From assembly GCA_000165345.1 (NCBI GenBank), contig CM000432.1, positions 416,001 to 480,000 of the forward strand: a stretch of DNA of 64,000 bases, in the 5' to 3' direction. Shown in pieces: positions 315 through 19,731 of this stretch. The translations under genes and the position numbers were made by a program. The notes beneath the pieces are model-generated. The model saw only the letters and a program-made list of their open reading frames with translations, did no database searches and was not told where the DNA came from. Every line of letters begins with the position of its first letter. The first letter of the stretch is position 1.

Positions 315-2177
315 ATGAATATTTTAATTAATGATAATATTCACGAAATTAGGAATATTTATGAACCTGAGAATGAAAATGAGTTCATTAATAAGAACTA
401 TAGCATTATTGGTATTAATAAAAGAAGAAAAACAGCATGTGAGAGGGAAGCCATTTTTAATAGATTAATATTAAATAACCCAAGTATAATTAGCGTTGAT
501 AAGGCATTACTGCCTGGAACTTGCGTATATTGCAATATTTGCCNAGTAAGGATTATATTAAATCCAGCATATTATTTGAATAATTGGAGAACGCATATGA
601 ATGGAAAACTGCATAAAGCATTATCAAAAGCAGTTGGTAGTCCACAGTTCTTGGACGAAGTAGACTTTTGTTTAGAAAAAGAGGAAGATTCGTACTTTGA
701 TTCTGTAAATGTATTGGGTTATGACAATAATAATATTCAGTACATAAATAGCGATCACAGCAATCAAAATNATAACATTAATATAACTAACTGTATGGAA
801 AATTATGATTTAATGATAAAGAATCCAAGAATATTATCATATATTAGTGATTCAGCTAAAAACAATAATGAAATTATTATTGACAGCATTGAGGATAATA
901 TTACACAATATGGAACAAATCAATTTGACAATAAAGTTATGGAGATATTAGAGGAAGAAAATGATAACAAAAGTAATTTAGAAAGTTTAAATATTAGAGA
1001 AATGAATGATGAAGATATATCCAGAAGTAATATTGATACTATGGGAAGTGAATTGGAAATAAAAAATCATATTCAACAAAATAACATTCAGATTGAAAAA
1101 CAAGAGTATGTAATACATCCATTAATATCAAATTTAGGAATGGAAAAAAATCAAATAGCTCAAGAATTTAGCTTTATTTTGGGAGATGAGTTATATAATA
1201 CTGGATTATATTCACACAATTCTGAAATGGTTGATAATAATACTAATACCAATAATAATAGCAATAGCAAAATATTATACGATGATGAAACTCTTCATGA
1301 TAAAGGGAAGTTATTAAATAGTAATTATTTACAAGTTTATCAAAATGACGCGAGTAAAAATAGTAATATTACCTATAGCGAGAGTGATTTGAACTTGGAT
1401 AAAAATAAGACAACAAATAATGTCGTTAAATATTTTAATACAAATATAATTAATAGCTTTGACAATTTAAATAAAGTGGAAAAATTACAAGATAATTTAT
1501 TAATAGAAGAAATTAATGAAAGTAAATTTCAAAACAATTTAGCCGTTAGTGAAAACAATCGTCAACTCAATAATAATTATTTATCATTAGGGATACCAGT
1601 AATTTCTCCAATAATAAGAACTAACTTTGAACAAATTGGAACATTCTATTGCCCAGGAATTAATAAAGTTAGATATTGGGCAATGTGTTTTATTGGTTCT
1701 GAAAGATCTACGGAACCTGAATTTGATCTAAGTAATTACAGTGATACAAGACGAGTATTCTATAAACAGTCAATAATTACAAAAGTAAGTCCAAATCACG
1801 AGCCAGAACATCAAGGAGTAGTTCATCATCCTAATTGTTTGGAAATTGTACCGAAACCTAATGAACCATGCGAAAGGTGTAGCTTATATATTAATAACAG
1901 ACAATTGGCACGCGTTATTAGTAAAAGAGCTACTCGATTACAAGAGATGTGGGATAGGGTAGTAGCTGGCGAAAGTATTATAAACGGAGGTAAGATCCCA
2001 CAGTCTATTATTTCCGCATATAATCATAGGATAGACCACTGGTCTAGATGTAATGATCCCTTAGAAGCTATCACACGAGCTCTTGCTGGTTGTAGACAAA
2101 GAGACTACACCAACTTCTTTTGGAAAATACGAGAAAATTTACTAAAAAATTCCAGATTAATTAGGAATCAATTATAA
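315..2177 (+). CDS. Hypothetical Asn/Ile-rich protein (620 aa) with a weak ApiAP2-like segment (PGINKVRYWAMCFIG...RRVFYKQ) near the C-terminus
   Basis: Long ATG-initiated ORF with coding-like composition that rises in GC toward the 3' end. It contains two N ambiguity codes (X). No confident family assignment. Confidence 0.7.
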   Translation: MNILINDNIHEIRNIYEPENENEFINKNYSIIGINKRRKTACEREAIFNRLILNNPSIISVDKALLPGTCVYCNICXVRIILNPAYYLNNWRTHMNGKLHKALSKAVGSPQFLDEVDFCLEKEEDSYFDSVNVLGYDNNNIQYINSDHSNQNXNINITNCMENYDLMIKNPRILSYISDSAKNNNEIIIDSIEDNITQYGTNQFDNKVMEILEEENDNKSNLESLNIREMNDEDISRSNIDTMGSELEIKNHIQQNNIQIEKQEYVIHPLISNLGMEKNQIAQEFSFILGDELYNTGLYSHNSEMVDNNTNTNNNSNSKILYDDETLHDKGKLLNSNYLQVYQNDASKNSNITYSESDLNLDKNKTTNNVVKYFNTNIINSFDNLNKVEKLQDNLLIEEINESKFQNNLAVSENNRQLNNNYLSLGIPVISPIIRTNFEQIGTFYCPGINKVRYWAMCFIGSERSTEPEFDLSNYSDTRRVFYKQSIITKVSPNHEPEHQGVVHHPNCLEIVPKPNEPCERCSLYINNRQLARVISKRATRLQEMWDRVVAGESIINGGKIPQSIISAYNHRIDHWSRCNDPLEAITRALAGCRQRDYTNFFWKIRENLLKNSRLIRNQL

Positions 2178-6711: not shown

Positions 6712-9700
6712 TTAATATTGCTGCTTTCTTTGCTTCATGATATTGTTTCTAAAATTTTCCTGGACATCCTTCAGACTAATTTTCTTTGAGTTCGAATCAA
6801 TAGTCTCTGAGTTTTGCAAATTTGCATTTAAAGCATTGGCTTTAATATCAGAATCTAAATGATTGTTTTGCTTTATATTAATCGCTAAATTTGGAATGAA
6901 TACTGTGGGTCTCTTGATCCCAGTTTTAATGTTATTATTCATTTCATTTTCATTGTTATTATTAGCATTTTCAAGTTTGATCAAATCATCTGAATTAATA
7001 ACAATATTATCTTCTTTCAATACATCATCAATAAATTCAGCCTCAACCAACTCATCTTGTAATGATTTAATACCTTCAATTTCTTTTGAATCAACATTAT
7101 TTCCAGACATATAATATATTGAATATCTTTTTCTTTGACCTCTCATTGTTGATGTACATAGTAATGGAGAATTATTTTGATCAGTTTCATCATCCTTTTC
7201 ATCATTATTTGATAAAATTCCTCCTTCATAATTAGATATAGATGCTCCTGTTTCTTCTAACTCCATTGGTTCATCAAGTTGTGTTATTAATGTATTTGCC
7301 TTTGCCTTCTTCCTATTATTCATCTTTAAGTGGTCGTTCAAATATAATGTATCATTCTCGATATCTTCAGTAAATTCATTCCTGCTCCTCTTGGCCTTAC
7401 GTTCTGAGGAGTTTTTCGATATAATTTCATTCTTGCTCTTTTCTTTTTCCTCCCTTTCGACTCTTTCTCTTTCTTCTCTTTCAATCCTTTCCTTTTCTTT
7501 CCTTTCAATTCTCTCTCTTTCGATCTTCTCTTTTTCTTCTCTTTCAATCCTCTCTCTTTCAATTCTTTCTCTTTCAATTCTCTCTCTTTCGATCCTCTCA
7601 TTTTCCTCTTTTTCAATTCTTTCTCTTTCTTCTCTTTCAATTCTTTCTCTTTCTTCTCTTTCAATCCTTTCCTTTTCTTTCCTTTCAATTCTCTCTCTTT
7701 CGATCTTCTCTTTTTCTTCTCTTTCAATCCTCTCTCTTTCAATTCTTTCTCTTTCAATTCTCTCTCTTTCGATCCTCTCATTTTCCTCTTTTTCAATTCT
7801 TTCTCTTTCTTCTCTTTCAATTCTCTCTCTTTCAATCCTCTCTCTTTCTTCTCTTTCAATCCTTTCCTTTTCTTCTCTTTCAATTCTCTCTCTTTCAATC
7901 CTCTCCTTTTCCTCTCTTTCAATTCTTTCTCTCTCTTCTCTTTCAATTCTCTCTCTTTCAATCCTCTCCTTTTCCTCTCTTTCAATTCTTTCTCTCTCTT
8001 CTCTTTCAATCCTTTCTCTTTCCTCCCTTTCGATTCTTTCTCTTTCTTCTCTCTTGATACATACATATCTTCTCAATGCTTTGCAAATCTGTATACATGC
8101 ATTTTTTCTCTTAATATGTCTATATAATGAAAAAAATTTAATTGAACATCTTATCATTACTAAATAGTTATTACATTTCTTCCTCAACCAATGTTTATAT
8201 AAAGAATTAATGCACTCAATTTTCCAATCCATAGAATTCTCTTGATCACATTTTTGAATAAATTGTTCAACTTTATCCAAAACATTAAATTTAAAAAATA
8301 CTCGAGTTAATCCAAGTTGGTAATCAATTTTATCCTTGTAGCCCATGTACTCCAATAATAAAGAAACAAAAAGTCTTTCATCTCTCAAGAGCAATTTTGC
8401 TTTGAATAATATGTTATTTTTATCATTTAAAGTTAAATCATTCATTGATTCTTGGTCACCAAGTTCAGTATTTATCTCAATAATTTGTTTAAAATAGTTA
8501 TAAATTTGACTGTAAGGAACTCTACAAGGATAACCATAAATCATAATATTAAGAATTTGTAAGATCCCACCAATTTGAAGCTGTTTATATACCTTTAAAC
8601 TATCAAATTTCAAAGAAATCTGCTGATTATTTGGTTTTATACATCTAATAAAATGGCTTTGAGTAGGATATAATTCATTTATTAACATATTCTGAACTTG
8701 TCTAACAAACATGCTTGAAACACTCTTATTCTTATTTGTATTCATTGGTGTTGGCACTTGATTTGTATTTTGATTAATTAAAGTTGTCAATGCATTCATT
8801 TGCAAATTATTTTTCTCAACAAAATTTGATATTCCATTTAATGACAAAATACTCTTTCTAACCAAACTTGTATCGGACATTGGACTATCATCGTTAAATA
8901 TTGCATTATTTTGATTAATATTTTCATCATCTTTGAATTGCACAGATCTTTCATCCTTATTCACTCTATTTAATAAATTATACTTAAATTTATTGATTTC
9001 TTGAATTGTATTTATTCTTGTATGTATTATTTTCTCAATATTTCCTGATAAAAAGTCTGTATTCTTTGAAATAAATTCATTACTTGTGTACTTAACGGGA
9101 CCTGCAAAATGATTTATTGTAAATGTCTTTTCAAGATTAAGTTTTTGAATTTGGATTACTCTTCCAATAGAATCAGACAAATCATTTAACTGAGGCAATA
9201 AATTATTTGTGTTCATTTCATCCTTATTATTGCATATTGATCCTCTATTTATACTCATTCTGATATTTGAATTACTTTGTAATTTATTTAGTGAATGAAC
9301 TTTATTACAAAATGCATGATCCCTATTTCCTTTCATTGGTATCTTTCCTGTTTCATCAAGAATTGATATAATATTATATGGAAGCAGGCTCAACATTGAA
9401 TTATTATACTGAAATTTCTCATAAAATGGATGTGGTGTGCAACTATTACCATCACTTCTTGATTCATTTCCATCTATTTCTGTGTTATTAAGATACTTTG
9501 GATTTACACCACTCATGACTGTACAAACGAATGACTGATGGAATAATAAATCCATTACATTTGCTGATGGAGTTGTCGAAATACTATTATTTATTCCCTC
9601 AGTTTTATATAATACTGTATCTCTATATAGTAATTGTTCCAAAAAGAAGCTATGCAGTCTTTCATTACAATAATTAATCAATAATTGTTCAAAACTATTC

Positions 9701-11415
9701 ACATGGTTTGGTTCCAAATCTTCAAATCCAAAAATATCCAAAATACCTATTGAATTATTTTGGTCTGATTTATTCATAGAATTTTCACTATTTTCGAATA
9801 TATTCTGTTTTAACGCTATATTTATTAACTCTACGATTAAATTAAAAATCCATTCATAGAGATATCTGGAGATACTATCTCTAGTATATATTGCCTCTGA
9901 ATACGATAGCCTTTTCTTAATTTTCACGATACTTTTTGTAGTTAATAATTCGATCAATTCTTCATTGCTCATTTTACTAAAATCTGAATCAGAATCAAAG
10001 TTGTAATTCCATATTTGTACGATTTGGTTTATTATTGATATTGACTCTTGAGTAAGCTCACATTCATCTTCATCTTTATTTTCAACAGGATTAAACTCAA
10101 TATTTCCTAACAATAAGATTGTGTATATCATATCGTATATCAAATCTCTATTATCCTCCGAAACCCCAATTGATTGAAAGCAATCATTAATTATTTTAAT
10201 ATTATATGGAACAGATTTCACAATTTCTCTCAAATTTTCACTTTTTAATGAGTTTTTACCGATACTTTGTCTAAAACTTTTTGAATCCACAGTCTTCAAA
10301 TAATTAAATTCTAGAGAAGAGTTATCACACGTTATTCCCCACCTAGTTTTCTGCGTTTCGTTTATTTCATTTAAAATATGATAGAAAATATGATAATTCC
10401 TTTCATTATTTGGAAGGTGTACTACTCTTGATTTTGCAAGCAAGTAAGTATTTATGGATGCATTAATTATTTTCCCGTTTTCATCAAATCCAAGTTTCAT
10501 ATACTTTCCAAATCGTGATGAATTATCGTTTCGAATTGTTCTTGAATTCCCAAATACTTCTAACAACGGATTTGAAGAAAGAAGACAGTTTTCAATAGTT
10601 GATAAATGAAGTCCCTCCACTTTATCAACAATATTATTAGTAGCATTTTTCATTCTTTGTCTATTGCTTACATAACTCAAATATTTCAATACATGCTTTG
10701 AAGTTTCAGTTTTTCCTGCTCCACTCTCTCCTGAAATTATTATTGATTGAGATCTATTATCCTTGAGCATTCTCCTATACGTCCATTCTGCTATTGCAAA
10801 TGGGTGAGGTTCCATATTCATTATATTCTTTCCTATGAATTCTTGTGCAGTTTCATCGTTATAAATATCATACTCCTTATATGGATTTACTGCAATCAAA
10901 ATTCCTCCTGCAAAACTGTACATTGGATACTTCGGAAAATCGTCACCACTTCTAATTCCACTCAATTTCATTTTTTCTTCACTATTGTTTTCTGTTACAT
11001 TATTACTACCTTTTAACATATCATAACAAACTTGAATATTTCTTATCACATTACCGATATTTAGATTTCTCAGCTGTGAATTATCCTTATAACCAAATCC
11101 ATCATCTGCCTTATATACAAATTCCTTATCTACATAAAAATTAATTTTAGCATCTTCTATTTCATCTCTAAATTCACCAATATATTCACATAAATATATT
11201 TTCTGTTTGGAATCGTAAGAAATTACGCATGCAAATAGAAATGCATCCAAATTAGATTCAACATTTTCAATTTCAGATTCAAATTTATTTAAACCTTCCA
11301 AGAAAGCCTTTGCTTTTTTTTCAGCCAATTTATTTGATAACTCTATTGTATGTGGATTTGCTCTGGAATATATCCAAACTTTATTCCCTTTACTTATTTC
11401 ATTGTAATTTTCCAT
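6712..11415 (-). CDS. Unconventional myosin heavy chain (1567 aa). Motor domain followed by an ER/K-rich single-alpha-helix or coiled-coil region and a tail
   Basis: P-loop GESGAGKTE, switch II LDIFGFE and the wider head architecture are present. An IQ-like segment (IQICKALRRYVCIKR) is followed by (IEREERER)n repeats. Confidence 0.9.
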   Translation of the reverse strand: MENYNEISKGNKVWIYSRANPHTIELSNKLAEKKAKAFLEGLNKFESEIENVESNLDAFLFACVISYDSKQKIYLCEYIGEFRDEIEDAKINFYVDKEFVYKADDGFGYKDNSQLRNLNIGNVIRNIQVCYDMLKGSNNVTENNSEEKMKLSGIRSGDDFPKYPMYSFAGGILIAVNPYKEYDIYNDETAQEFIGKNIMNMEPHPFAIAEWTYRRMLKDNRSQSIIISGESGAGKTETSKHVLKYLSYVSNRQRMKNATNNIVDKVEGLHLSTIENCLLSSNPLLEVFGNSRTIRNDNSSRFGKYMKLGFDENGKIINASINTYLLAKSRVVHLPNNERNYHIFYHILNEINETQKTRWGITCDNSSLEFNYLKTVDSKSFRQSIGKNSLKSENLREIVKSVPYNIKIINDCFQSIGVSEDNRDLIYDMIYTILLLGNIEFNPVENKDEDECELTQESISIINQIVQIWNYNFDSDSDFSKMSNEELIELLTTKSIVKIKKRLSYSEAIYTRDSISRYLYEWIFNLIVELINIALKQNIFENSENSMNKSDQNNSIGILDIFGFEDLEPNHVNSFEQLLINYCNERLHSFFLEQLLYRDTVLYKTEGINNSISTTPSANVMDLLFHQSFVCTVMSGVNPKYLNNTEIDGNESRSDGNSCTPHPFYEKFQYNNSMLSLLPYNIISILDETGKIPMKGNRDHAFCNKVHSLNKLQSNSNIRMSINRGSICNNKDEMNTNNLLPQLNDLSDSIGRVIQIQKLNLEKTFTINHFAGPVKYTSNEFISKNTDFLSGNIEKIIHTRINTIQEINKFKYNLLNRVNKDERSVQFKDDENINQNNAIFNDDSPMSDTSLVRKSILSLNGISNFVEKNNLQMNALTTLINQNTNQVPTPMNTNKNKSVSSMFVRQVQNMLINELYPTQSHFIRCIKPNNQQISLKFDSLKVYKQLQIGGILQILNIMIYGYPCRVPYSQIYNYFKQIIEINTELGDQESMNDLTLNDKNNILFKAKLLLRDERLFVSLLLEYMGYKDKIDYQLGLTRVFFKFNVLDKVEQFIQKCDQENSMDWKIECINSLYKHWLRKKCNNYLVMIRCSIKFFSLYRHIKRKNACIQICKALRRYVCIKREERERIEREERERIEREERERIEREEKERIERERIEREERERIEREEKERIERERIEREEKERIEREERERIERERIEREERERIEKEENERIERERIERERIERERIEREEKEKIERERIERKEKERIEREERERIEREERERIEKEENERIERERIERERIERERIEREEKEKIERERIERKEKERIEREERERVEREEKEKSKNEIISKNSSERKAKRSRNEFTEDIENDTLYLNDHLKMNNRKKAKANTLITQLDEPMELEETGASISNYEGGILSNNDEKDDETDQNNSPLLCTSTMRGQRKRYSIYYMSGNNVDSKEIEGIKSLQDELVEAEFIDDVLKEDNIVINSDDLIKLENANNNNENEMNNNIKTGIKRPTVFIPNLAINIKQNNHLDSDIKANALNANLQNSETIDSNSKKISLKDVQENFRNNIMKQRKQQY
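7380..8066. repeat. Coding TC-rich tandem repeat array encoding the ER/K heptad-like repeats of the myosin. It includes a perfect 180-bp tandem duplication (7462..7644 equals 7642..7824)
   Basis: Direct comparison of the sequence lines shows 7471-7650 and 7651-7830 identical except at the far ends. The protein carries a duplicated 60-aa block (RIEKEENERIERERIERERIERERIEREEKEKIERERIERKEKERIEREERER). Confidence 0.85.
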
Positions 11416-11938: not shown

Positions 11939-14082
11939 TTATCTACGGTCGGTTTTACCCATACCACGTTTTCCTGAAAATAGATGCATCGGCATTTTAG
12001 TTGGAATACTTCTATCAGCTTCTCCTCTTCTAGCAAGCTTTCCAAGTTTAGACTGAGACTTTCTACGTAATTTCTCGGCTTTTTCTTGCTGTTTACCAGG
12101 TTTAAGTGAAGCATCAATACGATTGGGAGCAGGACTGTGGCCTCTAGGTAATCTTTTCCTCTTTAATAATTCTCTGTTTGCATTTTCATCATTAACCAAC
12201 ATTTCAATATCTTCATTACCCGTAATACTTCTTGATCTTTTACTTCTTAATAAAGAAATTTGATCAGAAACATCATTTACTGCCCTTCTTGTCAAAGACC
12301 TTCCTCTTTCTCTCTTATTCTCCTCTTTTCTTGCAAGACTTCTACCTCTTTCATAAAGCTTAGATACATCATAACCTAACCCATCAAGTTGATTTGTTAG
12401 TTTTGTTAATTCACCAGCAGATGCCTGTCTAGCTCTTCCTCTAGGTAATATAGGCGCATTTCTTGCCTTATTGTCCATATTTTCTCTCCTCTTAAGATTA
12501 ATCTTATTGTGTATGTTTTTAAGAGCTGTTTGCGTTTGCTCCCATAGCTTTTCATCAAACTCTTGCGATGGATCATTCATTAGTAATATCTCCTCCTCCT
12601 TTTCAAGTTCCTTCAATTTTTCTTCAATATCAGGATCGATAAAGTCAATAATATTTTTGCCATCCATAATTTCTGGAACCAAATCATATTTCCAATCATC
12701 ATCCTTAAGAATATACTTCCTATTCCAATCCATTTGATACACACCAGCACCACCCATTTCCTCTTCAAGCTCCTTTTCTAGTGGTCCGGATTTTGTTCTT
12801 GATTTAATTTCCTGAGATCTCTCTTGTATTACAGAATCAGGTATGCAAGGTGGCCTGTCTTTATTTAAAGGCGTTTCTGCAATATGGAGCCTTCTTGAAA
12901 TTGCATCAACTCTTTTAGTTTGTACTTTAATTTCTATTCTTTTTTGAAGAAGCTCATTACATGCTCTATTTTTTGCTTCTTCAACTCCAACTTTTTGCAT
13001 TGTTGACATAGTTAAGAAATCAACTACTTCAATCTTTCCTCCATTTTCATTAGATTCTCCTTCTAATCCTGTCTTAAGCTCTTCAATCATCTTCTTTTCT
13101 TCTGGTGATAGATCATCTACTGAACGAGAATCAATCTTGTTTAATATAATAAATACTGGTTTATTTCTAAATAAAGTTTTGATAGAATGGAAAAGTTTAG
13201 TTTGTTTCTCAATACTATAGCCACATTCTTCTGAAATATCGACAAAATATAAAATGCATGAATGAATATGTGCTAATGCTGTGATGGCTGTCATTTCTAT
13301 TGTATTCCTTTCATCTAATGGACGATCTAAAATACCAGGAGTATCAATTACTTGCCATCTAGCATAGTTGTAATCAAAGTGACCAACATATAAAGATTTT
13401 GTAGTAAATGCATATGGCTCAACTTCAACATTAGCATGAGAAACACAATTGATAAAACTACTCTTACCAACATTTGGATAACCACATACTATTAATGTTC
13501 TTGTTGTTGGATTAATACTTGGAAGACGTCCAATATGTTGCCTAACTTCTTCTAAGTACTCCAAAGGCGCCTGTAACTTCTTTAAACAAGTACACATTCT
13601 ACCTAATGCAGCTCTTTTTAACATTTTACATTTATATGGACTGTCTGCATATTTTAATAATCTCACATAATCTTTTGCCAAAGAATCAATAATATTCTTC
13701 GATCCAGAAATATGGCCTAATGCAAGCTTATAATGATCCCTATCATATAATACATTACATAGATCTGAATAAAATGGATGTATCTCATCTAATCTTGGAA
13801 ATTGCGTCAATATCATGCCTAATCTATCATGTATAGCTTGCTGGCAAAATTTTACTTTTCTCATATAAAATGATCTTATTCTACTAATTTGAAATTGCGG
13901 ATGTACTTGAGTCGGAGTCTTTCTTTGAGTCTTAGATAATACAATATCTATTAAGTCCTTGCTATTTGGTATAATAGTAATATCCTAATAATAAACAAAG
14001 ATATATTAATAAAGTTCATGCAGATTAATAATTTAGATTTTCAACTTACCTTAAATCTATGTCCTAAACTTGTTGAACTCAT
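11939..14082 (-). CDS. NOG1: Nucleolar GTP-binding protein 1 (NOG1/GTPBP4). Two exons (14050..14082 and 11939..13984) with a 65-nt intron (13985..14049, GTAAGT...TATTAG)
   Basis: Exon 1 encodes MSSTSLGHRFK and exon 2 encodes [46 protein letters not shown]... This reproduces the human GTPBP4 N-terminus ([48 protein letters not shown]). The G domain GYPNVGKSSFIN...DTPGILD, the conserved C-terminal GKLARRGEADR and the remainder all align. The ORF track begins at internal Met 13864. Confidence 0.9.
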
Positions 14083-19100: not shown

Positions 19101-19731
19101 ATATTAATTTTTAAATTTAATTATATATTAATATATTCTGTAAACGCAAAGTTAATTTATAAAAATATTTTATTATTTTCTAAAGAAAATACTTTTCAAA
19201 ATTCTACTGCATGCATTTTTGCATTACGTGTAATTTGAATTGAAATTAATAAATGTTTACTTAAAAAATATATATTTACATATATATATATATAGAATAA
19301 ACTGAAAAAAATATAATTTTTTTAAAATTTTGTTAATTTATCTAATTTGTTCTAATCAAGTGATTTGAATGTAATGCAAATATTCATTAACAACTGACTT
19401 AAACGAAGTAAAAACTAATTATATAAGAATAACAATGACTTATCGAGTCAGTTATTTTTAACTTATTAATAAGTTATTTGGAATGACAGAATTATAATTT
19501 GTATATTAAAAAAATTTTTTTTTCCCAAATAGCAATTTTAATATTACAATTTAAACTAATAATTTCTTGACCGCTCAAAGAGGGTTTTTGACTAGAAAAT
19601 AAGCAGCTTTAATAACCATTGAAACTCTTTTCAAAAAATAAGAGTATATTAGTTTATTATTAAACCCTAAATTGCAGAATTTATTAATTAAATAAATTTA
19701 GCATATATTTGAATCTCAATAATTTGGGAAA

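Follow-up and report, generated by a model that had tools for sequence, protein, structure and literature searches.

An exact, probably recent 180-bp duplication in the predicted single alpha-helix repeat array of a Cryptosporidium parvum myosin

Introduction

How does a myosin come to carry two identical 60-residue blocks side by side in a charged helix, and can the reference sequence be trusted at such a place? The question is raised by a 64,000-nucleotide stretch of the Cryptosporidium parvum Iowa II genome (GenBank assembly GCA_000165345.1, contig CM000432.1, positions 416,001 to 480,000 of the forward strand; hereafter the window, with coordinates counted from its first base), in which a minus-strand myosin gene contains an array of short repeats rich in glutamate and arginine codons, including a perfect 180-bp tandem duplication. 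A preliminary description, made from the letters of the window alone, had regarded the duplication as very recent or maintained by concerted evolution, the encoded segment as an ER/K single alpha-helix (SAH) and the locus as one that varies in length between isolates, and had flagged an artefact of assembly as possible. The explanation that we favor, and consider likely, is that a 180-bp block was recently duplicated in frame within a coding minisatellite specifying the ER/K SAH of a class-26 myosin. The duplication is exact, is found in three independently made assemblies, and is absent from the orthologues and from one C. parvum genome; the array turns over rapidly at the level of its units between near-identical genomes, and the charged-helix pattern of the peptide is conserved through all of these changes.

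A perfect duplication within an array of short in-frame units

The myosin coding sequence is complete and consists of a single exon (6712..11415, minus strand; an open reading frame (ORF) of 1567 aa plus stop), and its product exactly matches the protein-collection entry EAK87907.1 / XP_625764.1 / Q5CR88 from C. parvum Iowa II, encoded on a contig of 1,104,417 bp that is presumably chromosome 4. The ER/K array occupies 7438..8055 on the same strand and encodes 206 aa (aa 1121-1326), as delimited by a map of its units, Tandem Repeats Finder (TRF), amino acid composition and an AlphaFold2 model. Direct comparison showed 7462..7644 and 7642..7824 to be identical at 183 of 183 bases, in agreement with the initial claim of a perfect 180-bp tandem duplication giving two identical 60-aa blocks. 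At an offset of 180, no identical stretch is longer than these 183 nt (7462..7644), and the duplication comes to 363 nt in total, i.e. two times 180 plus 3. Over the entire array the identity at this offset is 0.77, and the chance of a perfect run of 183 bases is about 1e-21. TRF placed an array of period 180 at 7440..8048 (3.3 copies, 85% matches), with nested periods of 63, 24 and 15; it is the only strong tandem repeat within the window. The plus strand is pyrimidine-rich over 7440..8055, the coding strand being 90% purine over 612 nt.

When the array was cut at every Ile or Val codon, with one letter assigned to each distinct DNA unit, it resolved into 30 units of either 15 bp (IERER) or 24 bp (IEREERER, IEREEKER and variants), in the order A B CDE CDE FGE [H IJKLMJN H][H IJKLMJN H] O. 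The duplicated block thus comprises nine units (H-I-J-K-L-M-J-N-H) with identical 24-bp H units at its borders and a junction overlap of 3 bp. Copy 1 lies at 7642..7821 (minus strand, aa 1199-1258) and the identical copy 2 at 7462..7641 (minus strand, aa 1259-1318), both in frame. The remainder of the array had been described as only imperfectly repetitive, which needs amending in one respect: a second perfect tandem duplication, with a period of 63 bp and 2.2 copies, is present at 7871..8010 (minus strand; units C-D-E C-D-E, aa 1136-1177).

In C. parvum and C. hominis taken together, 7 distinct DNA units code for the peptide IEREERER and 6 for IERER, and the length differences between array versions are all multiples of 3. 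Because the unit variants are synonymous and the frame is always kept, these comparisons indicate that selection acts on the array peptide and not on the DNA. With its tandem units, in-frame length changes and conserved flanks, the array has the sequence features of a coding minisatellite, or variable-number tandem repeat (VNTR). A plus-strand ORF (7391..8167) and an alternative minus-frame ORF (7338..8066) that overlap the array were considered as genes and rejected as by-products of the repeat.

Independent assemblies reproduce both copies

Repeats of such a kind are error-prone, and an obvious concern is that the 2004 Sanger assembly expanded a single block, or that other assemblies were scaffolded on it and inherited the error. 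The concern is strengthened by short-read contigs that break inside the array, by two deposited gene models that are frameshifted or truncated there, and by one C. parvum assembly with a single copy. The locus was therefore compared with that in three other C. parvum assemblies, fetched through the neighbouring Nog1 gene. In two of them, GCA_031892065.1 and GCA_035232765.1, the gene is 4704 nt long with a single mismatch to the window (at 9772), and 7380..8070 is without any difference. At a few further sites in the 14 kb compared, both show single-nucleotide polymorphisms (SNPs) relative to the window, and neither can therefore have been copied from the 2004 sequence. GCA_035232765.1 is the telomere-to-telomere CpBGF assembly, built de novo with Flye/NECAT from 2019 Nanopore reads together with MiSeq data (PMC12179316), and is the one compared assembly other than the window for which the sequencing method was established. 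About 15 years separate the Sanger assembly from the Nanopore one, and the two agree base for base over the array. The long-read check proposed at the outset is thereby available, since the Nanopore-based assembly shows both copies; and as its array and that of GCA_031892065.1 are identical to the window, the artefact that had been flagged is rejected. As judged from these comparisons, the two-copy array is not an assembly artefact, and we regard either version of that explanation as extremely unlikely.

Short-read contigs of C. parvum from Logan, reached via the downstream Brr6-like gene, all terminate inside the array and are uninformative on copy number. Those read from the 3' side (DRR845829, DRR729246, DRR729241 and DRR729260) end at 7640 or 7495, the former lying a single base away from the 7641/7642 boundary between the copies. 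The two broken gene models are KAL3128737.1 from C. hominis and POM82354.1 from C. meleagridis, both of which fail in the repeat: one of the pair stops after ...IERERKRKN (1177 aa), and the other slips into a KEKELKERK frame and is fused to the upstream Nog1 (2181 aa).

Length variation and the age of the duplication

Unit maps were drawn for four C. parvum and three C. hominis assemblies. The array measures 612, 612, 612 and 495 nt in the former and 393, 306 and 306 nt in the latter, with flanks that are identical within each species. The shorter C. parvum version is that of GCA_048859185.1, where the myosin has 1528 aa and the gene matches the window exactly over its first 3482 nt and its last 954 nt. 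The unit map of this version is A B CDE FGE H P F E H H [H IJKLMJN H] O, so that the 180-bp block and CDE each occur once and 126 bp of other units are present, a net difference of -117 bp. Outside the array, over about 14 kb, this genome and the window differ by two SNPs and one (AT)n length change. The latter is a microsatellite at about 19277..19295, (AT)8 in the window versus (AT)19 in GCA_048859185.1, which suggests that the assembly represents a different isolate and not a re-assembly. In C. hominis, the three assemblies carry three different arrays, located about 3360-3750 nt into the gene, while the remainder of the roughly 4.4-kb gene is identical among them; the published ChMyo26 represents a fourth C. 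hominis version. Arrays thus differ among genomes within both species, as had been anticipated for this locus.

None of the units diagnostic of the block (IEKEENER, IEREEKEK and IERKEKER) occurs in C. hominis, C. tyzzeri, C. meleagridis, C. canis or the chipmunk genotype. Because these orthologues lack them, the block is placed as having arisen within the C. parvum lineage, with the duplication younger still. The absence of the diagnostic units from orthologues, along with the C. parvum genome that has the block once, also bears out the proposal that the duplication is very recent. Two wider searches returned nothing further: metagenomes scanned with the C. parvum-specific units I-J-K gave 0 matches, and in a homologue search with neck, array and tail, unrelated Glu/Arg-rich proteins dominated and no further Cryptosporidium alleles appeared.

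Perfect identity could also be maintained in an old duplication, if gene conversion kept the copies alike (concerted evolution) and the single-copy genome reflected a secondary loss. Homogenisation is evident across the array, where identical 24-bp H units recur and are common to C. parvum and C. hominis, and in arrays of this kind a copy is lost as easily as it is gained; moreover, outgroups without the block cannot polarise the direction of change. Yet no orthologue has even one set of the diagnostic units, which makes the block itself young, and the copies show 0 differences in 180 bp and a 3-bp junction overlap, in a pair of genomes separated by only two SNPs in about 14 kb. With the block confined to C. 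parvum and a single-copy genome at hand, a recent event appears to be the simpler explanation, and an old, homogenised duplication is considered unlikely. In our reading of these comparisons, the duplication is probably recent and the locus polymorphic.

Some points weigh against this conclusion or narrow its reach. The three two-copy genomes may all be IOWA isolate lines, and would then say little on how widely the allele is spread. The single-copy version in GCA_048859185.1 could itself be mis-assembled, as could part of the C. hominis variation, for which the set may include short-read assemblies; and the ends of the Logan contigs inside the array show that it is hard to assemble.

The array changes by the gain or loss of whole units or blocks of units, presumably through replication slippage or unequal recombination between identical units. 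All of the observed changes preserve the reading frame and the Glu/Arg/Lys/Ile pattern, and the product would thereby remain one long charged helix with salt bridges between residues i and i+4. In the IOWA lineage, the duplication would add about 9 nm to give a helix of about 31 nm, a change in length that is presumably tolerated functionally.

The array is predicted to form a single alpha-helix

The 206 residues of the array are 46% Glu, 31% Arg, 8% Lys and 14% Ile, so that Glu, Arg and Lys together make up 85%. At a spacing of i,i+4, 135 of 202 positions pair opposite charges and only 5 pair like charges. AlphaFold2, run on aa 1040-1567 with an 11-sequence alignment, predicted a single unbroken helix over aa 1104-1317 (214 residues; predicted local distance difference test (pLDDT) score 80-98 in the core), followed by about 230 residues of low confidence. 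With a rise of 0.15 nm per residue, the array would measure about 31 nm and each 60-aa block about 9 nm. The Waggawagga analysis suggested at the outset was already published in 2017 for the exact sequence, with a score of 0.50 (Simm, Hatje, Waack & Kollmar 2017, PLoS One 12:e0174639; PMC5378345). Composition, charge pairing, the predicted helix and the published score thus agree with the preliminary assignment of the repeat to an ER/K SAH.

The same region could instead be a coiled coil through which the myosin dimerises, or a low-complexity insert without functional relevance. Several features invite such a reading, among them the regular placement of Ile every 5 or 8 residues, the roughly two-fold range in length among close genomes, which suggests a weak constraint on length, and the short, non-repetitive tract found in C. 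andersoni and C. serpentis. The 3.5-residue heptad periodicity of coiled coils was, however, tested for in the 206-aa array and not found: the hydrophobic residues are spaced by 5 or 8 only, their Fourier power is 4.6 at a period of 3.5 versus 479 at 2.6, and the Ile residues are evenly distributed around the helical wheel (mean resultant 0.08-0.09). The published score of 0.50 also stands apart from known coiled coils, which score below 0.25 (PMC5378345). As to relevance, a charged helical tract is kept at this position in every Cryptosporidium species examined, with a length of about 100 aa in C. hominis and C. tyzzeri versus 206 aa in the window, and the synonymous variation among units implies that the peptide is selected. 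A coiled coil or an irrelevant insert is therefore rated very unlikely. A sequence search of the PDB with the array returned only a low-complexity match to a WD40-like protein.

Three observations count against a straightforward SAH. At i,i+3 the charge balance is unfavourable, with 33 opposite versus 110 like pairs, and the salt-bridge network is for this reason carried by i,i+4 only. The hydrophobic share of 14% exceeds the mean of 9.6% reported for myosin SAH domains, which average 76% charged residues (PMC5378345). Finally, an AlphaFold2 monomer model cannot tell an SAH from a coiled coil. Taken as a whole, the pattern of the array fits a charged SAH and not a coiled coil, as far as sequence and composition indicate. 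The helix would directly follow the IQ-like neck and part the motor from a mostly disordered tail; it may be monomeric and act as a lever extension or as a spacer between motor and tail.

Motor, neck and tail of the myosin, and the neighbouring Nog1 gene

The 1567-aa protein matches the Pfam Myosin_head domain (PF00063; E 2.5e-132, 442.9 bits), the sole Pfam domain above threshold, which is in line with the original description of the gene as encoding a myosin. The best-scoring stretch of the motor domain, located by the Pfam match and the translation, lies at 9583..10929 (minus strand, aa 163-611), and the translation shows the P-loop (GESGAGKT), switch I (NSSRFGK) and switch II (DIFGFE). On these sequence features, the protein is assigned to the myosin superfamily. 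Its class-26 label (CpMyo26 in the Kollmar nomenclature) is based on identity with the published CpMyo26_fl entry, whose SAH string and coordinates (1123..1329) equal those of this protein, which identifies it as CpMyo26. Classes XXIII-XXVII of the Odronitz/Kollmar scheme are apicomplexan-specific, class 26 having later been reported in chromerids too. At base 9772, the window has T where GCA_031892065.1 and GCA_035232765.1 have G, which changes one residue of the motor domain; the T is probably a sequencing error of 2004 or a line-specific SNP, and it accounts for an exact search with the window's myosin having retrieved no other contig.

The neck (8056..8166, minus strand, aa ~1084-1120) contains two degenerate IQ-like stretches, MIRCSIKFFSLYRHIKRK and ACIQICKALRRYVCIK, as read from the translation, and the long helix begins within it; no IQ match above the Pfam threshold was found there. 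MYO6_lever (PF21521) matches 8065..8232 (minus strand, aa 1062-1117) below threshold, with E 0.055 and 14.1 bits where the cut-off is 27.3, and gives a faint hint of a class VI-like neck. In Pfam searches with the full protein and with the neck, neither the lever nor the cargo-binding domain of myosin VI (PF21521, PF16521) was detected above threshold, and membership in the metazoan class VI is not supported by the domain content. The tail (6715..7464, minus strand, aa 1318-1567) is predicted to be disordered (pLDDT < 50) and no Pfam domain was found in it. Short motifs within it (SPLLCTS.MR...Y, SLQDELVEAEF, R-P-T-F and a C-terminal helix) do not vary within the genus, from C. parvum through to C. 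andersoni, and are candidate linear binding motifs.

The Nog1 gene, encoding nucleolar GTP-binding protein 1, covers 11939..13864 on the minus strand and sequence upstream of it. Its longest ORF in the window has 641 aa; other annotations give 692 aa, and the 2004 model EAK87950.1 has 681 aa and is marked partial. In GCA_048859185.1 the gene spans 2144 nt versus the 2079 nt required for 692 codons and a stop, and the excess of 65 nt therefore implies a short 5' intron.

Significance

The SAH domain itself is already published and catalogued. Two points have apparently not been reported before: very recent duplications account for the record length of the domain, and near-identical genomes differ within this gene in the array alone. 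The record SAH owes 60 of its ~206 residues to a very recent duplication, with close relatives ranging from ~100 to 206, and this origin is useful context for arguments that connect SAH length to lever function. Because the Sanger and Nanopore assemblies agree base for base, the two-copy reference array can be trusted, and there is no need in annotation or variant calling to handle it as collapsed or expanded. The array is at the same time a trap for assembly and annotation, as the short-read contigs that end inside it and the two broken deposited models show. Since near-identical genomes differ nowhere else in the gene, it is also a candidate length marker. The practical value of these results is modest, and they leave knowledge of the system unchanged.

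A bolder idea is that SAH length serves as a fast-mutating, selectable "tuning knob". The minisatellite would then produce a series of alleles, with lengths of about 15 nm (C. hominis, C. tyzzeri) up to about 31 nm (C. parvum IOWA), which would alter the reach or working stroke of the class-26 motor, and the 9-nm extension in IOWA would have a measurable biological effect. We consider this quite unlikely; if true, the locus would amount to a naturally occurring in vivo test of how SAH length relates to motor function.

Comparison with known systems

The array resembles the serine repeat of gp60 and the loci used in subtyping by multilocus VNTR analysis (MLVA), in that in-frame repeats vary in copy number between isolates and are bordered by near-invariant flanks. 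It differs from these loci in that the myosin units are heterogeneous (15 and 24 bp) and change in multi-unit blocks of 63, 87, 126 and 180 bp. A limited literature search found no paper using the myosin array as a VNTR marker, and searches of the literature for the accessions of the protein likewise returned nothing.

The closest precedent is the work of Simm and co-workers, in which Waggawagga was run on 7919 myosins. Its supplement lists CpMyo26_fl with an SAH of 207 aa at 1123..1329 and a score of 0.50 against a threshold of 0.25 (PMC5378345), that is, the same protein and the same residues, with a string that includes both 60-aa blocks. The SAH domains of cryptosporidian class-26 myosins were reported there as the longest (~200 aa, ~300 A) among all the myosins analyzed, and the supplement gives 134 aa for ChMyo26_fl, so that the difference between species was already visible. 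Unlike the present analysis, the portions of that article and supplement drawn on here make no mention of the 180-bp and 63-bp duplications as the source of the length, nor of length differences within C. parvum.

Beyond Cryptosporidium, the best matches to the myosin include proteins named myosin K from Cardiosporidium (E 2e-105) and from several Plasmodium species, with metazoan myosin VI next. This recalls the apicomplexan class VI-like MyoK and MyoJ (Foth nomenclature), but the identity to MyoK-type myosins within the motor is only ~30-34%, and an equivalence of class 26 with MyoK or the "VI-like" group is at present only a lead from sequence similarity.

With regard to architecture, the array can be compared with the SAH domains of myosin VI (in its medial tail) and myosin X, where a helix rich in E, R and K likewise directly follows the light-chain-binding neck and is thought to act as a lever extension or semi-rigid spacer (PMC5378345). 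In contrast to these, the motor in the window belongs to an alveolate-specific class and is known here from sequence and prediction, and its array, longer by a factor of 3-5, consists of exact short DNA repeats with Ile.

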